Part shown: positions 3,834 through 27,893 of the stretch, in pieces | Numbering within the stretch: the first letter of the stretch is position 1 | Layout of the letters: each line of letters opens with the position of its first letter | Source of the DNA: a virus | DNA: 35,942 nt | Reading direction: 5' to 3' (one strand) | IMG/VR virus record: IMGVR_UViG_3300042347_000453 | The notes under the pieces: generated by a model | The model's database searches: none | Told to the model about the DNA's origin: nothing | What the model saw: the letters and a program-made list of their open reading frames with translations, nothing else | Translations under genes and position numbers: made by a program

Positions 3834-4370
3834 TTAAAAATGTATGTAACCCCATTCTTTTCCGTGTTTTATCCTACTTATTTGTTGGTGATTTACAGGG
3901 TAATCTTTTGCAATTTTGCAAACACGCTCACCATTTTTAAGACGTTTTTTTATAGCTATAACATCATCAATGCAAAGTTTTGCGCCAAATGCTTTTTGGC
4001 CTTTGTTTGTAACTCCATGAAGAATCTTGTCTTTTTGGTTATTCTGCGCGGTGTCATACCTAAGATTTTTTACGCAATTGTTAGATGCGTTTCCATCATT
4101 GTGACATCGTTCCATTCCATCTGGGATGGGGCCAACAAATTCTTGAAGGACAAGATGGTGAACTCTGATAATTTTTACGTTAAAATTTTTGCAAAGAGAA
4201 ACTTGTTGTCTTTTTGCTTTGTCAGTAACTGGTTTAAGAATTTTCTCAAACACTTTTCTTTTAACCCCGCTGGACGTAAATGTATATCTTTCATGGCTTT
4301 TTACTCTTCCCATGTTAGATACAGAATACAAGCCCTCATACCCAGTAATTGGTTTCCAAATTTCTTGCAT
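3834..4370 (-). CDS. HNH homing endonuclease (NUMOD4 + HNH_3 + C-terminal HTH)
   Basis: WKPITGYEGLYSVSNMGRVKS (NUMOD4), RVHHLV...CHNDGNASNNCVKNLRYDT..NN (HNH) and ISRIKHGKEW (HTH tail). It is the only minus-strand gene and sits in an AT-rich island. Confidence 0.9.
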   Translation of the reverse strand: MQEIWKPITGYEGLYSVSNMGRVKSHERYTFTSSGVKRKVFEKILKPVTDKAKRQQVSLCKNFNVKIIRVHHLVLQEFVGPIPDGMERCHNDGNASNNCVKNLRYDTAQNNQKDKILHGVTNKGQKAFGAKLCIDDVIAIKKRLKNGERVCKIAKDYPVNHQQISRIKHGKEWGYIHF

Positions 4371-6346: not shown

Positions 6347-7475
6347 TTTTCCTGACCTTCCAATCATGGCATTTAGAAAAAGGCCGGATGGTCGGATTGC
6401 AACTTTAGAAGGCGGGAAAGGCTATGCACCACCGCCACCCGATTACGAATCAGCCGCAAAAGAAACAGCACGCGGCAACCTAGAAGCTACCCGCGCAGCA
6501 GTTCGTGCAAATCGAATAAACCAATATACACCCTATGGGAAATTGACGTACCGACAAAACCCGGTAGGCGGAAAAATTAACTATGATGCTTACAACAAAG
6601 CATTGCAATCGTATAATCAAAGTCGTTTTCCGGCTAATACAAAAAATGACGTGATTGGCGGGACAGAGTACAGCGCAAGGTACGGCCGGACCAGACCCGG
6701 CGGCGCAACGAGTGTAGCGGAACAACAAGGACAGTTTCAAGGAATTGCTCCAAAGCTAGAAGACTTCATGGAATACGACCCAGATTCAGGCTGGGAGCAA
6801 ACAATGGAGCTTACGCCTGAAGCACAGTCAGCACTTGACCAACAACTAGCCCTGAACCGTAAATATGGCGAAGTGGCTAATTTAGGCTTTGATCGGGTTC
6901 GCTCGATATTTGAAAACCCGGAGCTTGACGTTGGCGCTTTACCTAAACGAGCAATTGACGTAGGCCAGACCGCGCAAGAAGCGTTATTGGCCAGACTTAA
7001 CCCGCAGCTACAGTCACAAGAAGAAGCAACACGGCAACGGTTAGCAAACACTGGCATTGGACTAGGCTCAGATGCTTTCTCGCGTGAGATGGCAATACAA
7101 GGCCAGCAAGCTAACGACTTGAGACTGCAGGCCGCCTTACAAGGGATAAACCTTGACCAGGCTAACCGCGCTGCTGCACTGCAAGAACAAGCCTACCTAC
7201 AAGACAGACCGCTTAACCTGATAAATGCCCTACGTGCTGGAAACCAAGTAACCGCACCGCAGTTTCAACAGTTTGCACAACAGGCAACCACGCAGGGACC
7301 TGATTTGCTAGGTGCAACAAACGCACAGTACAACGCACAAATGAACGCATACAACGCTGACCAAGCCGCAGGTAGTGGGATGATGGGAGGATTGTTTGGC
7401 TTAGGCATGGGTTTGGCTGGACTTCCTGTAGCGGGTGGCGGTTCTTTGCTTGGTAATTTTATAGGGAAAAGATAA
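6330..7475 (+). CDS. Internal virion/ejection-like protein (381 aa) with a Gly-rich hydrophobic C-terminus
   Basis: Q/A/N-rich protein ending GSGMMGGLFGLGMGLAGLPVAGGG. Sits at the position of the T7 gp14-16 block. Confidence 0.5.
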   Translation: MRYLTDFPDLPIMAFRKRPDGRIATLEGGKGYAPPPPDYESAAKETARGNLEATRAAVRANRINQYTPYGKLTYRQNPVGGKINYDAYNKALQSYNQSRFPANTKNDVIGGTEYSARYGRTRPGGATSVAEQQGQFQGIAPKLEDFMEYDPDSGWEQTMELTPEAQSALDQQLALNRKYGEVANLGFDRVRSIFENPELDVGALPKRAIDVGQTAQEALLARLNPQLQSQEEATRQRLANTGIGLGSDAFSREMAIQGQQANDLRLQAALQGINLDQANRAAALQEQAYLQDRPLNLINALRAGNQVTAPQFQQFAQQATTQGPDLLGATNAQYNAQMNAYNADQAAGSGMMGGLFGLGMGLAGLPVAGGGSLLGNFIGKR

Positions 7476-24193: not shown

Positions 24194-24355
24194 ATGGACA
24201 CTAAAAAAATCGGTAAGCCGAAAACAATTGAAGACGCAAAGCGCGTAAACATTTACATTTCTAAAAAAGCGCACGAAAAAGCGAAAAAGATCGGCGGCGG
24301 AAACTTTTCTGCTGGCGTGACAAAGCTGATAAATGAGTATGATCGTCGGACTTGA
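24194..24355 (+). CDS. Ribbon-helix-helix (CopG/Arc-like) small DNA-binding protein (53 aa)
   Basis: Translated by hand. KRVNIYISKKAHEKAKKIGGGNFSAGVTKLI is a typical RHH strand-helix-helix. Confidence 0.5.
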   Translation: MDTKKIGKPKTIEDAKRVNIYISKKAHEKAKKIGGGNFSAGVTKLINEYDRRT

Positions 24356-24764
24356 CCCAGGTACAAATACGGGAGTAGCTATATTTGAAGACGGAAAGCT
24401 TACAAAGCTAACCACCTGGACGCCGATTCAGCTAATAACGCTGCTTTCTAGCCTTTCAGTCAAAAGCGTGATATTCGAGGATTCGCGCTTGACTTCGCCA
24501 GTCTGGAGCCGTGGGACTAGCCAGGCCGCCAGGCTAAAGATAGCCCGGAATGTCGGCCAAGTGGACGCTATATGCAATTTAATATGCGCCCTATGCGAAG
24601 AAATGAAAATCAGCGCCCACGGAATAAGCCCGAAGCACAAAGGGCGCAAGCTGGACGCTGAGACTTTTAACAAGCTGACTGGCTGGGACAAAAAAAGCAA
24701 CCAACACGAGCGTGATGCGGCAATGTGTGTTTTTTCACATGGCGGAATAAAAGGGCTTGCATAG
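24333..24764 (+). CDS. RuvC-like Holliday junction resolvase
   Basis: IVGLDPGTNTGVAIF (first catalytic Asp), VIFEDS, and NQHERDAAM at the C-terminus. Confidence 0.75.
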   Translation: MSMIVGLDPGTNTGVAIFEDGKLTKLTTWTPIQLITLLSSLSVKSVIFEDSRLTSPVWSRGTSQAARLKIARNVGQVDAICNLICALCEEMKISAHGISPKHKGRKLDAETFNKLTGWDKKSNQHERDAAMCVFSHGGIKGLA

Positions 24765-25779: not shown

Positions 25780-26588
25780 CTGACAAAACTGACCGAGAAA
25801 TAATGTATCAAGCGATGGTGGCGTTGGATAGCAAAAACGACATGACAAAAGCTGAGTGGCGCTATCTTCAGTACCACGCTTTTAATGACCTACGTGAACG
25901 ACTAGCCAAGCCAGACCCGCGTAATCAGCGCGGGGTGGGTATGACTGACCGAAAACTTTTAGAACAAGCGCATGATGCGCTATATAAAGAAGATAGGATT
26001 AGTGGGTACGCTAATTACGGAAAATTAAGGAAAGACCTACGTGAACGACTAGCGCAGCCAGACCCACTTCAGCGTTTTACTGACGTGCAGCAAGAGATAG
26101 AGGCCGCATTAGCACCAGAGCAGGAACAGATTGCCCAAGCTGTGCAGACGGTGATTCAAGCCATGCAAGACGACCCTGGGTATGCTTGGGCTTGGCATTG
26201 CAACATTGCAATGGCTTTTGTGGACGCAGGCGGCGACCGATATACAGCTAACCAAGGCGCTGCTCGTTTCCTCGAAATGTTTGCCAAAGTTCAACCGGCG
26301 CATGAGCTACCAGCACCAGAGCAGGAGCCAATGGCTGTAATTAAGCGCAATGAAGCTGGCCAGATTACTATGCAGACGCCCGATGGAAATCCTTTCGATA
26401 TGTCCAAATATATTGGAGCGAAACTCCACACCGCCCCGCCAGAGCAGGAGCGACGCGAATGGCAAGGGCTGACAGACGAGGAAATATCCGCAATCAGCAA
26501 AAGCATACCAGGTGAAACTGTTTTGGGGGCGGCAAAGCGTTTGTTTGCCAGAGCAATCGAAGACAAGTTAAAGGAAAAAAACACATGA
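25776..26588 (+). CDS. Mosaic hypothetical protein (270 aa) with internal repeats
   Basis: DLRERLAKPDP and DLRERLAQPDP. An internal GVGMTDRKLLEQA repeats the gene-start module of 25471. PEQE repeats. Confidence 0.65.
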   Translation: MTDKTDREIMYQAMVALDSKNDMTKAEWRYLQYHAFNDLRERLAKPDPRNQRGVGMTDRKLLEQAHDALYKEDRISGYANYGKLRKDLRERLAQPDPLQRFTDVQQEIEAALAPEQEQIAQAVQTVIQAMQDDPGYAWAWHCNIAMAFVDAGGDRYTANQGAARFLEMFAKVQPAHELPAPEQEPMAVIKRNEAGQITMQTPDGNPFDMSKYIGAKLHTAPPEQERREWQGLTDEEISAISKSIPGETVLGAAKRLFARAIEDKLKEKNT

Positions 26589-26773
26589 AAGATGCTATTT
26601 TTGAAATTTTAATTCAAGTGCTAATTGTGGTGGCTTCTGTTTTTTTACTTGGTGTATTCGCGCAAGGTGTGCTTTCACTAGGTGAAGACCCTGCATCCGA
26701 ATACTGCGCATTGTGCATTAAAAACGAAGGTAAGCCAGTTTTTAACGGCAAGTATTGGGAGTGCATGAAATGA
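26585..26773 (+). CDS. Small membrane/Cys protein (62 aa)
   Basis: ATGA overlap, N-terminal TM. Confidence 0.55.
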   Translation: MKDAIFEILIQVLIVVASVFLLGVFAQGVLSLGEDPASEYCALCIKNEGKPVFNGKYWECMK

Positions 26774-26922
26774 CTGACCGTGAAGCATTTGAAGAACGCG
26801 CAGCAATACTTCAATACGACGCGGGAATGAGTAAAGCGGAAGCAGAAAAGAAAGCAAAAGCGCTAATTGAAAAGCGGGAAATGTTGGATAAGATAGCGAA
26901 AATGAGGGAAAATAAGCACTGA
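26770..26922 (+). CDS. Small protein (50 aa) with the FEERAAILQYDAG motif
   Basis: Translated by hand. The ERAAI.eyDgG...AE motif is common in small phage and plasmid replication-associated proteins. Confidence 0.55.
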   Translation: MTDREAFEERAAILQYDAGMSKAEAEKKAKALIEKREMLDKIAKMRENKH

Positions 26923-26939
26923 CCCCGGAAAGTACGGGG
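26923..26939 (+). repeat. Small hairpin, copy 1 (CCCCG-GAAAGTA-CGGGG), start of the conserved 24-nt module
   Basis: ccccggaaagtacggggactaaca compared with gcccggaaagtacggggattaaca at 27181. Confidence 0.6.
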
Positions 26940-27072
26940 ACTAACATTGAAGCGGCGGCGTGGAGTGCGTAGGCACTTAATGGACACGCACAAAACCCGA
27001 ATGTTCGTGGCCTCAGACGCGATGAGTAGGGACTGAGATAGCAGGTCAAGCCCTGCCCTCTTCAATGTTAGT
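26940..27072 (+). repeat. Long hairpin H1 (13-bp perfect closing stem ACTAACATTGAAG / CTTCAATGTTAGT)
   Basis: 26940..26952 pairs with 27060..27072. The interior holds sub-hairpins agtgc-GTAG-gcact and gcagg-tcaagc-cctgc. Confidence 0.6.
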
Positions 27073-27073
27073 G

Positions 27074-27173
27074 CTAAAAAGTCTAGGGTCTGGCAACGGG
27101 TTAGCGCCGTTGTTTTGGTTTGGTTCTTTCTTGTGCGTCGCTGCTTTATGCGAGCAGACCCTAGACTTGTTAG
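27074..27173 (+). repeat. Long hairpin H2 (19-bp closing stem with one mismatch)
   Basis: ctaaaaagtctagggtctg (27074..27092) pairs with cagaccctagacttgttag (27155..27173). The interior holds caacgg-gttagcg-ccgttg. Confidence 0.6.
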
Positions 27174-27181
27174 TGAATGCG

Positions 27182-27196
27182 CCCGGAAAGTACGGG
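27182..27196 (+). repeat. Small hairpin, copy 2 (CCCG-GAAAGTA-CGGG)
   Basis: Second copy of the conserved module, 258 nt after the first. Confidence 0.6.
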
Positions 27197-27199
27197 GAT

Positions 27200-27275
27200 T
27201 AACACGCATGGGGCTTAGGTGTACCGTGCTAGCCGGGGATGAGCCAATACTCGGCCTAGGCTCCAGTCGTGTTAG
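27200..27275 (+). repeat. Long hairpin H3 (7 bp + 2x2 internal loop + 11 bp with two G-U pairs)
   Basis: taacacg-ca-tggggcttagg pairs with cctaggctcca-gt-cgtgtta. Confidence 0.55.
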
Positions 27276-27433
27276 TGAACAGTCCGGCACAGGAGCTACG
27301 AAAGTAGCCTGCAAAGCGTATGGCCTGGATTTACAGGTGAACCCTGTCGACGGATAGGGCTACGGACATCCGGGGTAATAAGCCCCACCTTATACAGCCT
27401 TATATTTTGATAGATAAAAATTAGGAGCGCACA

Positions 27434-27691
27434 ATGATTTTGAGCGAATTTGTTTTAACGCACACCAAAGGACTAAGCCCGATAGATTTGGCGCTGCTGT
27501 TTGCCGATGTAAGCGTAACAACAACAACGGGCGTGCTGTGGTGGAAAAAGAAGCGAGTTGAGCGCCGCAAGATTGCACGTGAATACGTGGGCTTTTGGCA
27601 CTTTGTAGACAACGGGCAACTCTGCCCCGGCTTCCAAGCGGAGCTTCTGGAAAGAAGCTATAGGGCACGCGAGAAATTGGCTGACGACTAG
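27434..27691 (+). CDS. Hypothetical protein (85 aa)
   Basis: aggag SD, first ORF after the structured block. Confidence 0.6.
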   Translation: MILSEFVLTHTKGLSPIDLALLFADVSVTTTTGVLWWKKKRVERRKIAREYVGFWHFVDNGQLCPGFQAELLERSYRAREKLADD

Positions 27692-27692
27692 C

Positions 27693-27893
27693 ATGAAATA
27701 CTATTTACCTGACTACAACTTTGCTGTAGAGAAATATAAAGCCTGGTGGATTATGCTGCATAAGGGCAGTGATGCGGTATTAGCGACAGCACCGGAGCAG
27801 ATTAAAGCTGTACTTTGGTGGGCTGAAAAAAACAAAAAAAAATATGCCGAATTGGTTGAATTATCATTAAAAAGAACTAGGGGCGCAAAATGA
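27693..27893 (+). CDS. Hypothetical protein (66 aa)
   Basis: ORF track entry, tight packing. Confidence 0.6.
   Translation: MKYYLPDYNFAVEKYKAWWIMLHKGSDAVLATAPEQIKAVLWWAEKNKKKYAELVELSLKRTRGAK

Follow-up and report, generated by a model that had tools for sequence, protein, structure and literature searches.

A non-coding block upstream of phage terminase is organized as an array of separate RNA modules

Between a 50-aa gene and the next gene downstream, the viral DNA analyzed here (IMG/VR record IMGVR_UViG_3300042347_000453; 35,942 nucleotides, hereafter the window) carries a block at 26923-27400 which raises the question of whether it represents a gene, a DNA element or RNA and, if the last, RNA of what kind. 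The block has a GC content of 54.4%, compared with 46.8% genome-wide. Upstream of it lie a Holliday-junction resolvase gene (24333-24764) and small nin-like genes, and downstream the terminase, with 773 nt separating the block from the putative small-terminase gene (28173), in agreement with a preliminary description made from the letters of this DNA. All genes of the window, as well as all copies of the motif described below, are in the sense orientation. The plus strand of the whole block folds with -200 kcal/mol, as compared with -170 ± 7 for shuffled sequences (z = -4.2), and none of 100 shuffles was as stable; the fold of the minus strand has z = -3.7. The block had no match by DNA similarity among 50,697 phage records. 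A scan against Rfam 15 gave no gathering-score match in the whole window and none even at E ≤ 10 within 26700-27600, in line with the earlier statement that the block is no known tRNA, tmRNA, RNase P RNA, 6S RNA, riboswitch or ribozyme. The same search returned only noise for the betaproteobacterial version of the array and, for related arrays, one tRNA and one int-alpA RNA (the latter in L030), otherwise noise. A tRNA gene was also sought with ARAGORN and the Rfam tRNA model, and none was found in the window.

The block is non-coding. Open reading frames of 80 and 45 aa on the plus strand and of 167, 123 and 30 aa on the minus strand overlap it, and we agree with the preliminary description that none is credible. 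A protein-coding gene would be expected to show a conserved frame and a family match; instead, the three frames scanned against PHROG (80, 167 and 123 aa) had no match, and a 1-nt insertion breaks the 80-aa frame in the closest relative (L009). We also considered whether the block could be the remains of a protein-coding gene or consist of several small genes, keeping in mind the overlap with the 80-aa and 167-aa frames and the fact that in two relatives (L043 and L064) a 125-aa ORF enters the terminal domain described below in the frame of the 80-aa ORF. This is highly improbable in view of the frameshift and the lack of protein-family matches. Moreover, substitutions in the terminal domain keep the base pairs while altering the amino acids non-conservatively (ATKVA, AMKMA, SAKAD), and the presence or absence of modules among relatives destroys every frame.

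The block is a plus-strand array of separate RNA modules rather than a single RNA. From 5' to 3' these are a small hairpin, H1, H2, a damaged second copy of the small hairpin, H3 and a terminal four-helix domain (Table 1). Both the sequence and the minimum-free-energy folds contain every helix listed in the preliminary description, where it had been placed. Along H1, the stalk is followed by a linker of 2 nt and a 5-bp arm whose loop contains GG; after a variable middle comes another 5-bp arm, stacked on the stalk's 3' strand. The resemblance of H1 to tRNA goes no further: it has no match to the tRNA model and its loops differ from T-loops. Two finer points of the preliminary description did not survive comparison with relatives. 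UAUGG, read as half of a tetraloop receptor, varies (UAUAG, UAUGAG), and the other receptor half is absent; an alternative pairing of UGGGGCUU with AAGCCCCA, put forward as a pseudoknot or switch, is unnecessary, with AAGCCCC sitting in the invariant local hairpin GGGGU-AAUAA-GCCCC that is kept in relatives without H3.

Table 1. RNA modules and associated elements of the block.
Feature	Position	Strand	Description
Small punctuation hairpin, copy 1	26920..26939 (hairpin 26923-26939)	+	UGA is the stop of the 50-aa gene, then CCCCG-GAAAGUA-CGGGG; 7-nt-loop variant of UGACA-stem-GAAAGA-stem, with 5' flank UGAC instead of UGACA-C
Module H1	26940..27072	+	13-bp perfect stalk (26940-26952 with 27060-27072) closing a multi-hairpin core; conserved elements GCGG-CG-GCGUG...CACGC and GCAGG-UCAAGC-CCUGC
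Module H2	27074..27173	+	19-bp stalk with one mismatch, from folds and homolog L136; encloses conserved inner hairpin GGCAACGG-GUUAGCG-CCGUUG then U-rich run (terminator-like, 27092-27124), and element CUGCUUUAUGCGAGCAG
UGAAUGCG	27174..27181	+	3' flank of stalk and first bases of otherwise deleted module C; deletion junction relative to relatives such as L004 (window compared with L004 and L002)
Small punctuation hairpin, copy 2	27182..27197 (hairpin 27182-27196)	+	CCCG-GAAAGUA-CGGG then G; lacks UGACA flank and outermost pair
Module H3	27198..27276	+	Stalk with conserved internal loop ACGCAUG / CAGUCGU, from minimum-free-energy fold; apical element GUGUACCGUGCUAGCCGG...CUCGGC
Terminal (distal) domain	27282..27367	+	Four-way junction closed by GUCCGG/CGGAC, from 16-sequence alignment A1; contains GNRA hairpin GCUAC-GAAA-GUAGC (27295-27308) and two further hairpins
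Invariant hairpin GGGGU-AAUAA-GCCCC	27372..27386	+	Ends block; no variation across 16 sequences; no U-run directly after
Short direct repeat CCUUAUACAG-CCUUAUAUUUUGAUA	27388..27412	+	Between block and next gene; 1-3 copies in relatives

A single large structured RNA, as envisaged in the preliminary description, would be of the ornate GOLLD/ROOL type. The size (480 nt here, reaching ~900 nt in relatives), the freshwater phage source, the tRNAs adjoining or nested inside and the combination of a variable 5' part with a conserved 3' domain all recall GOLLD as it has been described. A single folded molecule of this kind is nevertheless quite improbable, since the block matches neither model in Rfam 15, even at E ≤ 10, and its modules are independent, occurring alone, duplicated and in many orders and numbers. 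Further, long-range pairs joining one module to another are neither predicted nor conserved, and the conserved 3' domain is only ~90 nt long.

Comparison of homologous sequences shows conservation of the helices at the level of RNA. In the terminal domain (A1, 16 sequences), 31 pairs are 98.4% paired and 10 of them are compensatory, compared with 2.4 ± 1.1 in shuffles; none of 500 shuffles scored as high, and sliding the partners gave at most 3. In the H1 family, for which alignment A2 brings together 11 sequences of freshwater phages and betaproteobacterial prophages, pairing amounts to 97.5% and 12 pairs are compensatory, compared with 6.6 ± 1.4 in shuffles; the module C family has 14 such pairs, including a compensated kissing loop (GCUGA/UCAGC), compared with 3.7 ± 1.3. 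For H2 and H3, support comes from one diverged homolog each: in L136 the inner elements of H2 are kept and the stalk GGGUCUG/CAGACCC has become GGGACUG/CAGUCCC, and in L138 the H3 stalk GGGGCUUAGG/CCUAGGCUCC has become GAUGAUUAAG/CUUAGUCAUC. In other relatives the base of H3 is retained and the interior replaced. G-U pairs are fixed in helices, and in the stems of the small hairpin they outnumber A-C by 22 to 8. The RNA-level structure proposed in the preliminary description is thus supported by covariation above the level of shuffles in both the terminal domain and the H1 family, by G-U pairs (which would be C-A on the opposite strand) and by the conserved GNRA loop.

The arrays of close relatives differ in content. 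Phages with 92-100% identity in their shared modules display at least 10 module arrangements, and L013/L056, with a TerL 100% identical to that of the window, nonetheless have different module sets. In some relatives the same slot holds a tRNA-Tyr-like gene or a protein gene. These comparisons show that the block is modular and that its modules are interchangeable with tRNA and tRNA-like genes. Such shuffling between near-identical phages fits one of the options raised earlier, that of an array of hairpin-type exchangeable units.

Could the units then be DNA-level hairpin cassettes or recombination sites, similar to integron attC, MITE or REP elements, with the RNA folds as a by-product? Short inverted repeats do bound the modules (ACUAACA / UGUUAGU in the window), each genome using one boundary sequence that differs from those of other genomes (ACCAUCA, CCAAAACA, CUCUCACA); the breakpoints between close relatives fall at module boundaries; and the window boundary is loosely similar to the attC core sites RYYYAAC/GTTRRRY. 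We consider this explanation unlikely. On inspection, GACTAAC/GTTAGTG of the window mismatches the attC consensus, the boundaries change completely between genomes (ACCATCA/TGATGGT and others), and there is no integrase beside the arrays and no associated transposase. In addition, the helices tolerate G-U and far less A-C, the orientation is always sense, and the conserved loops, internal loops, GNRA tetraloop and compensated kissing loop are features of RNA.

Gene order in relatives shows that the slot of the block is one in which they keep tRNA genes. In L020 and L048 a tRNA-Tyr-like gene lies between the small hairpin and H3, and in L314, L237 and L310 tRNA-like payloads lie within stalks, these tRNA-like payloads of relatives being detected only at relaxed settings. 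Modules are found inside tRNA/tmRNA islands of Xanthomonas phage FoX2 and Bordetella phage PHB04; the FoX2 RNA island is annotated with spurious 'hypothetical proteins'. In Erwinia phage phiEt88 a small hairpin, a stalk hairpin, module C and a tRNA come after the Q gene, late promoter and terminator, and in P22-like prophages of E. coli the stalk hairpin and module C directly follow PR'/tR'. The annotation of Sf6 lists PR', qut and tR' and then tRNA-Asn and tRNA-Thr, and both Sf6 and phage 21 carry these two tRNA genes there. The gene order of the window (resolvase, nin-like genes, block, terminase) fits this lambdoid late-leader slot; no Q, PR' or tR' was found, the search of the window for a late promoter or Q-like antiterminator yielding only a weak promoter-like site at 26867-26894. 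Given that the same modules adjoin tRNA genes, follow Q/PR'/tR' and occur elsewhere unrelated to terminase, a packaging-related cis element, which had also been suggested, is without support. Taken together, the non-coding and RNA-level nature of the block, its lack of a known class and its organization as an exchangeable array were correctly anticipated in the preliminary description, whereas the single RNA, the switch, the receptor and the packaging role were not borne out.

The small hairpin reaches far beyond these relatives. In its general form, UGACA precedes a covarying stem whose GAAAGA loop is invariant; this motif recurs in hundreds of contigs, phage as well as prophage, spanning many bacterial phyla (at least 120 contigs in IMG/VR and at least 120 in a metagenome collection). 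The exact 23-mer of window copy 1 occurs in 14 IMG/VR contigs, and an exact 20-mer of the motif in 64 GTDB species genomes, compared with an estimated ~2 expected by chance. The commonest form is GCCCG-GAAAGA-CGGGC, and a tandem partner hairpin has the loop GACAGA. Typically, tRNAs or long stalk-closed RNAs lie 1-10 nt downstream: among 162 distinct units, the motif is followed by a stalk-closed hairpin in 45 and by a tRNA within 25 nt in 18. Neither copy in the window has the canonical UGACA flank and, if this flank matters, the window array may be partly degenerate. The motif has no entry in Rfam 15 and no match in the literature searched by sequence string and topic. An all-against-all comparison of ORFs at ~180 motif loci revealed no common family that could represent a shared partner protein, the most frequent being a CI/LexA-type repressor at 23 loci. 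In L297 the motif itself is a spacer target.

Several identities were considered for the small hairpin and rejected. An intrinsic terminator does not fit, since the window copies are followed by A(C/U)UAACA and only 19/162 units have a U-run; it is the inner hairpin of H2 that is terminator-like. For a sigma-70 promoter, no upstream -10 offset was enriched in 266 instances and the bases after the hairpin are unlike TATAAT. The UGA of UGACA was in frame with upstream ORFs no more often than in control frames, contrary to a stop-codon or recoding (SECIS-like) signal. A CRISPR repeat (type I-E-like) or solitary mimic was rejected because the two copies, 258 nt apart, flank structured modules and because it is the loop, and not the stem, that is conserved across phages. 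The region upstream of the hairpin is not a boxA (CGCUCUUA-like) of a lambda-type nut site, positions -15 to -2 being unconserved and only the U at -1 conserved. As regards hammerhead, twister, pistol and hatchet ribozymes, no Rfam model matches and the UGACA linker is unlike the CUGANGA core. Further candidates (CsrA site, box C/D or K-turn, Y RNA/Ro, retron msr-msd and IS200/REP hairpins) were set aside, since the features or partner genes that define them are missing.

Cumulatively, our findings lead us to propose that the block is an accessory RNA-gene island in a late leader, the modules of which mature like those of tRNA clusters, making it an RNA counterpart of the phage tRNA cluster; we estimate the probability of this reading at about one half. 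The island would lie at the boundary of early (replication, nin-like) and late (terminase, head) genes and would be transcribed from the plus strand together with neighbouring genes. The stalk helix, formed by the paired ends of each long module, may insulate the module and present it as a discrete unit, with the small conserved hairpin (UGACA, stem, GAAAGA loop) one base before the stalk as putative punctuation. By analogy with the leader-trailer stems of rRNA and tRNA precursors, the precursor would be cut at or near the stalks and punctuation hairpins; the stalks, with 13-21 bp, are at the short end for RNase III. The predicted products are stable RNAs of 75-135 nt acting in trans late in infection. 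Because payload turnover is fast and some relatives carry anticodon-less tRNA mimics, it is a plausible guess that these RNAs are tRNA-related or anti-defence decoys. The terminal domain, which is the last module in all relatives and abuts the late genes, may act in cis instead.

Indeed, a cis-acting leader would account equally well for two features of the array: its sense orientation ahead of the late genes and the unchanging place of the terminal domain. The block as a whole could be such a late-operon leader, in which the small hairpin would serve as a nut/boxB-like or put-like antitermination signal; alternatively, the structured leader would shield the 5' end of late mRNA or contribute sites for RNase III. 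Its location between early and late genes, the related modules directly after PR'/qut/tR', the terminator-like hairpin in H2, which would need read-through, and the small hairpins preceding an SD and ORF in 14/162 units are all compatible with this explanation. The hairpin also looks like boxB: its commonest form resembles that of lambda (GCCCU-GAAAA-AGGGC; nutL loop GAAGA), and the loop of its tandem partner is similar to GACAA of P22. Nevertheless, we find a purely cis-acting role doubtful. The number and kind of modules vary among phages with the same downstream genes and identical TerL, and therefore no particular module is required in cis. Moreover, the same modules are found among tRNA/tmRNA genes far from late operons, the hairpin is at no fixed distance from promoters, and 19/162 copies are followed by a U-run, as in terminators. 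Neither a boxA-like sequence nor a shared N-like protein was found at motif loci, although N proteins are too small and divergent for this comparison.

Returning to the accessory RNA-gene island, we tentatively extend it to a broader, possible interpretation, in which the small hairpin and stalk grammar would be an undescribed pan-phage system for expression or processing of RNA cassettes. As the mark of a cassette start, the hairpin would be recognized by machinery conserved among hosts (RNA polymerase or else a universal RNase) that range from Proteobacteria to Firmicutes, Bacteroidota and Cyanobacteria, and a genome-specific stalk would close the payload. The payloads, i.e. tRNAs, anticodon-less tRNA mimics, tmRNA pieces and several new ornate families such as H1, H2/H3 and module C, would serve in phage-host conflict as accessory RNAs that are swapped rapidly. 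At least four new structured RNA families are present, represented among others in cultured phages and in hundreds of E. coli prophages. Cultured carriers are Erwinia phage phiEt88, Xanthomonas phages FoX2 and FoX5, Vibrio phages of the Nahant collection such as 1.285.O and, for the stalk hairpin and module C, E. coli phages Huey and IME10. Annotation of phages is nearly all protein-based, leaving RNA islands blank or filling them with spurious 'hypothetical proteins', and the hairpin-stalk-payload grammar could allow systematic finding of phage RNA genes. Payloads that proved to be tRNA mimics or decoys would be relevant to the means by which phages overcome tRNA-targeting defences, and a hairpin that served in processing or antitermination would represent a general phage tool across phyla.

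Among known systems, integron attC sites share with the array imperfect palindromes and conserved inverse core sequences bounding exchangeable units; they differ in that the core sequences here depart from the consensus and are genome-specific, no integrase is present and conservation is of the RNA type. The small hairpin has in common with the nut boxB of lambda and P22 a 5-bp G+C stem, a purine-rich loop of the G-A-A-(A/G)-A type and a location on the sense strand upstream of terminators, but it has a hexaloop, its UGACA flank is not boxA, and it occurs in many phyla and is repeated in RNA-gene arrays. Theta (minimal HDV-like) ribozymes, which are located at the tRNA 3' end, adopt a nested double-pseudoknot fold and have a proposed role in tRNA maturation (PMC10879173), are likewise small conserved RNA elements abutting tRNA genes of Caudoviricetes, and a role in tRNA maturation is proposed for both; the small hairpin, however, is a simple stem-loop 5-10 nt upstream of the tRNA 5' end and matches no Rfam ribozyme, so that neither position nor fold agrees with a theta/HDV-like ribozyme. 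GOLLD and ROOL (RF01998, RF03087) are also phage-borne, ornate and tRNA-associated, GOLLD coming from lake samples as well; the array differs from them in consisting of independent shuffled modules, not one fold, and in matching neither model. The tRNA cluster of T4 encodes the stable 'species 1 and 2' RNAs. In both T4 and the arrays, non-tRNA structured RNAs are encoded with tRNAs and probably co-mature with them, but there is no sequence relationship, and the stalk grammar and punctuation hairpin have not been described for T4. Finally, the related modules of phiEt88 and the E. coli prophages occupy the same slot, in the same orientation, as the tRNA and further RNA genes of the lambdoid late leaders in phage 21, Sf6 and Stx phages and as the short PR' transcript (lambda 6S RNA; StxS); the window modules differ in not being tRNAs and in belonging to families absent from Rfam 15, and no Q, PR' or tR' was found in the window.

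Inspection of positions 26500-27700 of the window located each helix listed in the preliminary description at the coordinates it had given, and confirmed its view that the block holds no plausible ORF (see table). The 80-, 167- and 123-aa ORFs overlapping the block have no match in PHROG and the 80-aa frame is broken in the closest relative by a single-base insertion; therefore, these ORFs are not genes, and the block is non-coding. It is richer in G+C than the genome (54.4% vs. 46.8%), and its + strand RNA folds at -200 kcal/mol compared to -170 +/- 7 in dinucleotide shuffles (z = -4.2), with z = -3.7 for the - strand folded as RNA. A conserved hairpin inside H2, GGCAACGG-GUUAGCG-CCGUUG followed by UUUUGGUUUGGUU, scores as an intrinsic terminator; its homolog in the diverged locus L136 keeps the hairpin and lacks the U-run. 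The decamer CCTTATACAG and a variant of it are directly repeated in the short interval that separates the RNA block from the following gene; relatives (e.g. L007, L010, L062) have one to three copies, and the repeat may be a site bound by a regulator or may have arisen by slippage.

Coordinates of the features in the window
Feature	Position	Strand	Basis
Major head protein	795	+	annotation
Erf recombinase	16570	+	annotation
O-like replication initiator	19451	+	annotation
Holliday-junction resolvase	24333	+	annotation
50-aa gene ending at the block (MTDREAFEERAAILQYDAGMSKAEAE...)	26770-26922	+	match to PHROG 22422, function unknown
Weak promoter-like site TTGAAA-16-TAAGAT	26867-26894
Stop codon UGA of 50-aa gene	26920-26922	+	sequence of 26500-27700
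Small hairpin copy 1, CCCCG-GAAAGUA-CGGGG, directly 3' of UGA	26923-26939	+	sequence
H1, closing stem 13 bp, perfect	26940-27072	+	sequence, predicted fold
H2, stem 19 bp with one mismatch	27074-27173	+	sequence, predicted fold
Terminator-like hairpin inside H2	27092-27124
Small hairpin copy 2	27182-27196	+	sequence
H3	27198-27276	+	sequence, predicted fold
Terminal domain, closed by GUCCG/CGGAC, holds GCUAC-GAAA-GUAGC hairpin	27282-27367	+	sequence, predicted fold
Final hairpin GGGGU-AAUAA-GCCCC	27372-27386	+	sequence, predicted fold
Decamer direct repeat	27388-27412
TerL	28484	+	~44% identical to TerL of Pelagibacter HTVC010P / Rhodoferax P26218 type phages

The pairing is maintained by compensatory change. 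In the terminal domain (16 distinct sequences, 31 pairs) 98.4% of cells are paired, with 10 compensatory pairs vs. 2.4 +/- 1.1 in shuffles (0/500 as high) and at most 3 when partners were slid; its loop stays of the GNRA type (GAAA, GUAA) while the stem varies (GCUAC/GUAGC, GCCAU/AUGGC, UCUGC/GCAGA). The H1 family, with members in freshwater phages and in prophages of Achromobacter, Chromobacterium and other Burkholderiales (11 sequences, 26 pairs, 97.5% of cells paired), has 12 such pairs vs. 6.6 +/- 1.4 (slid, at most 3), and the module C family, which takes in Erwinia phage phiEt88 and one E. coli prophage (12 sequences, 22 pairs, 98.5%), has 14 vs. 3.7 +/- 1.3 (slid, at most 4). Both of these alignments were trimmed, the variable middle of H1 being excised and replaced by AAAAAA before alignment and module C being treated likewise. 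A loop-loop interaction of module C, GCUGA/UCAGC, is compensated in locus L300 as GGUGA/UCACC. One diverged homolog of H2 (L136) and one of H3 (L138) keep the inner conserved elements and have a stalk altered by several compensatory substitutions. Several helices contain fixed G-U pairs; read from the opposite strand they would become C-A mismatches, which identifies + as the strand that folds. RNA pairing in this strand is under selection. A decayed gene is an unlikely reading of the block.

A 23-mer common to both small hairpins retrieved 14 IMG/VR contigs, and more relatives were added by TerL search. Their loci carry the same units in many combinations, with at least ten arrangements counted: the small hairpin, H1 (same stalk, at least four different interiors), H2, H3 (several interiors), module C (~170 nt, absent from the window) and the terminal domain, which is last in every array. 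L013/L056, with a TerL 100% identical to that of the window, runs hairpin, H1b, H2, C, hairpin, H1a, terminal domain. L020 and L048 have a tRNA-Tyr-like gene, found by ARAGORN at a relaxed threshold only, between the small hairpin and H3; in L043 (1818-2195) and L064 a 125-aa ORF (NYITKDDINRMAREAGF...) has taken the place of the H3 3' half and continues into the terminal RNA domain, indicating that the site takes protein-coding inserts too. In the window, small hairpin copy 2 adjoins a remnant of module C, its first bases (GUGAAUGCG joined to CCCGGAAAG); this junction is the scar of a deletion. The block is, therefore, not the one large structured RNA considered in the preliminary description but a series of independent units, exchanged between close relatives at a variable hot spot. 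A single GOLLD-like RNA is unlikely. A cassette mechanism acting on DNA could explain the exchange of modules, but leaves the RNA-type conservation unexplained.

The small hairpin is a pan-phage motif, of which the window copies are variants with a 7-nt loop. Its commonest form plus 5' flank, the exact 20-mer GACACCCCGGAAAGACGGGG, occurs in at least 120 contigs of the metagenome collection and in 64 GTDB species genomes, vs. ~2 expected by chance in GTDB as estimated from collection size; the GTDB carriers include Burkholderiales, Cyanobacteria, Lachnospiraceae, Oscillospiraceae, Bacteroidales, Saccharibacteria, Planctomycetota and Treponema. For an unbiased test of the stem, IMG/VR was scanned with TGACANNNCGGAAAGACGNNN, leaving three outer stem positions free. 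Among the matches listed there were 122 distinct instances, 83 with all three free positions paired (vs. ~5% by chance), more than 25 different stems and, in near-perfect stems, 22 G-U vs. 8 A-C oppositions. The scan defines the motif as U-G-A-C-A, a covarying 5-bp stem and an invariant G[GAAAGA]C. For 46% of the matches listed, no mechanical ORF of 80 aa or more covers the hairpin, vs. 15% for random positions. Cultured carriers include Xanthomonas phages FoX2/FoX5, Erwinia phage phiEt88, many Nahant Vibrio phages, Ralstonia phages and Bacteroides phage BS-TP2, and in every one found the hairpin is unannotated. A Ca. Kapaibacterium MAG (L297, JAEUSO010000600.1, about 150-200) carries the hairpin (..GAGCGGTGACACCCCGGAAAGACGGGGG) as a CRISPR spacer flanked by two type I-E-like repeats (GTGTTCCCCGCTCGCGCGGGGATGAACCG), suggesting that a host gained immunity against this conserved phage motif. 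Candidate instances were also noted in a Pacearchaeota MAG (L273, exact 20-mer) and, at ~89% identity, in the haloarchaeal Halorubrum tailed viruses OP630574-6. A second recurrent small hairpin, with loop GGGUAAG and 5' flank CUAACC (L026, L030, L036; e.g. CCUAACCUGACCGGGUAAGAGUCAGGG), takes the same position before stalk hairpins in some arrays, and a variant with loop GACAGA stands in tandem with the GAAAGA hairpin in L399, L418, L426 and L429.

We classified what follows the hairpin in 162 distinct units among the matches listed of two exact-20-mer scans (metagenomes, GTDB genomes): a stalk-closed long hairpin starting one base later (45), a tRNA within 25 nt (18), a U-run (19), a Shine-Dalgarno sequence, start codon and ORF (14), or other sequence including many H3-type hairpins (66). 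Among the matches listed, spacing to -10 hexamers was not fixed, so a promoter-linked element was rejected, as was a stop-codon role for its UGA, which is in frame no oftener than in control frames. No protein family common to the loci listed was found. The main rival to our interpretation holds that the block serves as a late leader acting in cis, in which the small hairpin would be an antitermination signal of the boxB or put kind. Its loop does resemble boxB; however, neither a boxA at the hairpin nor a partner protein was found, the hairpin is repeated within RNA-gene arrays, and modules differ between phages with the same late genes.

Every long module is closed by a stalk whose outer 7-10 bp are alike within one genome and different between genomes: ACUAACA/UGUUAGU in the window, CCAAAACA in L026, ACCAUCA in betaproteobacterial prophages, CUCUCACA in L300 and CUUUCAC in L030, usually with UGA(A) right after the 3' strand. 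This 3' strand (e.g. GAUGGUG) has two complementary partners, the 5' strand ahead of the module and a copy that follows module C (L263 5750-6020, L441 1520-1830, L004 9380-9660, and others). Both pairings covary and are mutually exclusive, and could represent a switch or a three-strand arrangement. In three loci (L314 about 4176-4350, +; L237, - strand; L310 about 1715-1860, +) the stalk extends the acceptor stem of a tRNA-like payload with normal D and T arms, in which a tetraloop hairpin plus extra hairpins replace the anticodon arm; these may be anticodon-less tRNA mimics. The arrays of FoX2 and Bordetella phage PHB04 lie within tRNA/tmRNA islands. By eye, the PHB04 locus (L320, MF663786.1 45076-47783; 2.7 kb with hardly any annotated genes) contains several tRNAs and an apparent circularly permuted (two-piece) tmRNA gene, followed by a ACCAUCAUCGAAGCGG...CCGCUUCGAUGAUGGUG stalk hairpin. 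In L030, an int-alpA RNA (Rfam RF02996, 42 bits; 7120-7188, -) lies ~1.9 kb downstream of the small hairpin in the same orientation, amid a long series of hairpins and tRNA-like elements; int-alpA, a motif whose function is unknown, may also be a payload of such arrays. Slot and frame (hairpin, then stalk, then payload) are common to the units and to tRNA or tRNA-like genes. We infer that the array would be expressed in the manner of a tRNA cluster, stalks and small hairpins punctuating a precursor that would be cut into stable RNAs acting in trans, and that the terminal domain may work in cis.

The window, in which every gene is on the + strand, appears to be a complete genome (~36 kb), and the annotated gene order places the block between a nin-like early region and the late genes. 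The phiEt88 locus runs from the Q antiterminator gene through a promoter and a terminator, a small ORF, the small hairpin, a stalk hairpin and module C to tRNA-Phe. The Q-S intergenic region of P22-like prophages of E. coli has, directly after PR' and the terminator tR', a stalk hairpin plus module C, both homologous to modules of freshwater phages and Burkholderiales prophages; phages Huey and IME10 have both too, and 876 of 5,426 complete E. coli genomes match part of the phiEt88 array query (best 52% of query, 73% identity). In E. coli S10 (L443, NZ_CP010229.1, 1560-1870) the stalk hairpin and module C, the latter with its kissing loop, are both unannotated. Sf6, in whose record PR', qut and tR' are annotated, has tRNA-Asn and tRNA-Thr in the equivalent position. 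Judging by gene order, the block probably occupies the equivalent slot in a distant phage. No Q gene or late promoter was identified in the window; the only promoter-like site here is weak, its -35 is not kept in relatives, and it lies within the 3' end of the 50-aa gene, just as PR' of Sf6 lies within that of Q.

The Rfam scan proposed in the preliminary description, run with Rfam 15, assigned the block to no family, with 0 matches at gathering score in the whole window and 0 at E<=10 in 26700-27600. ARAGORN found no tRNA or tmRNA in the window, and the DNA of the block has 0 matches in 50,697 phage records. Neither Rfam 15 nor the literature searched yielded anything on H1, H2/H3, module C, the terminal domain, the stalk grammar or, above all, the pan-phage GAAAGA hairpin. 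RNA genes in the late-leader slot and ornate phage RNAs adjoining tRNAs are known kinds of element; the hairpin-stalk system has a real chance of being new.
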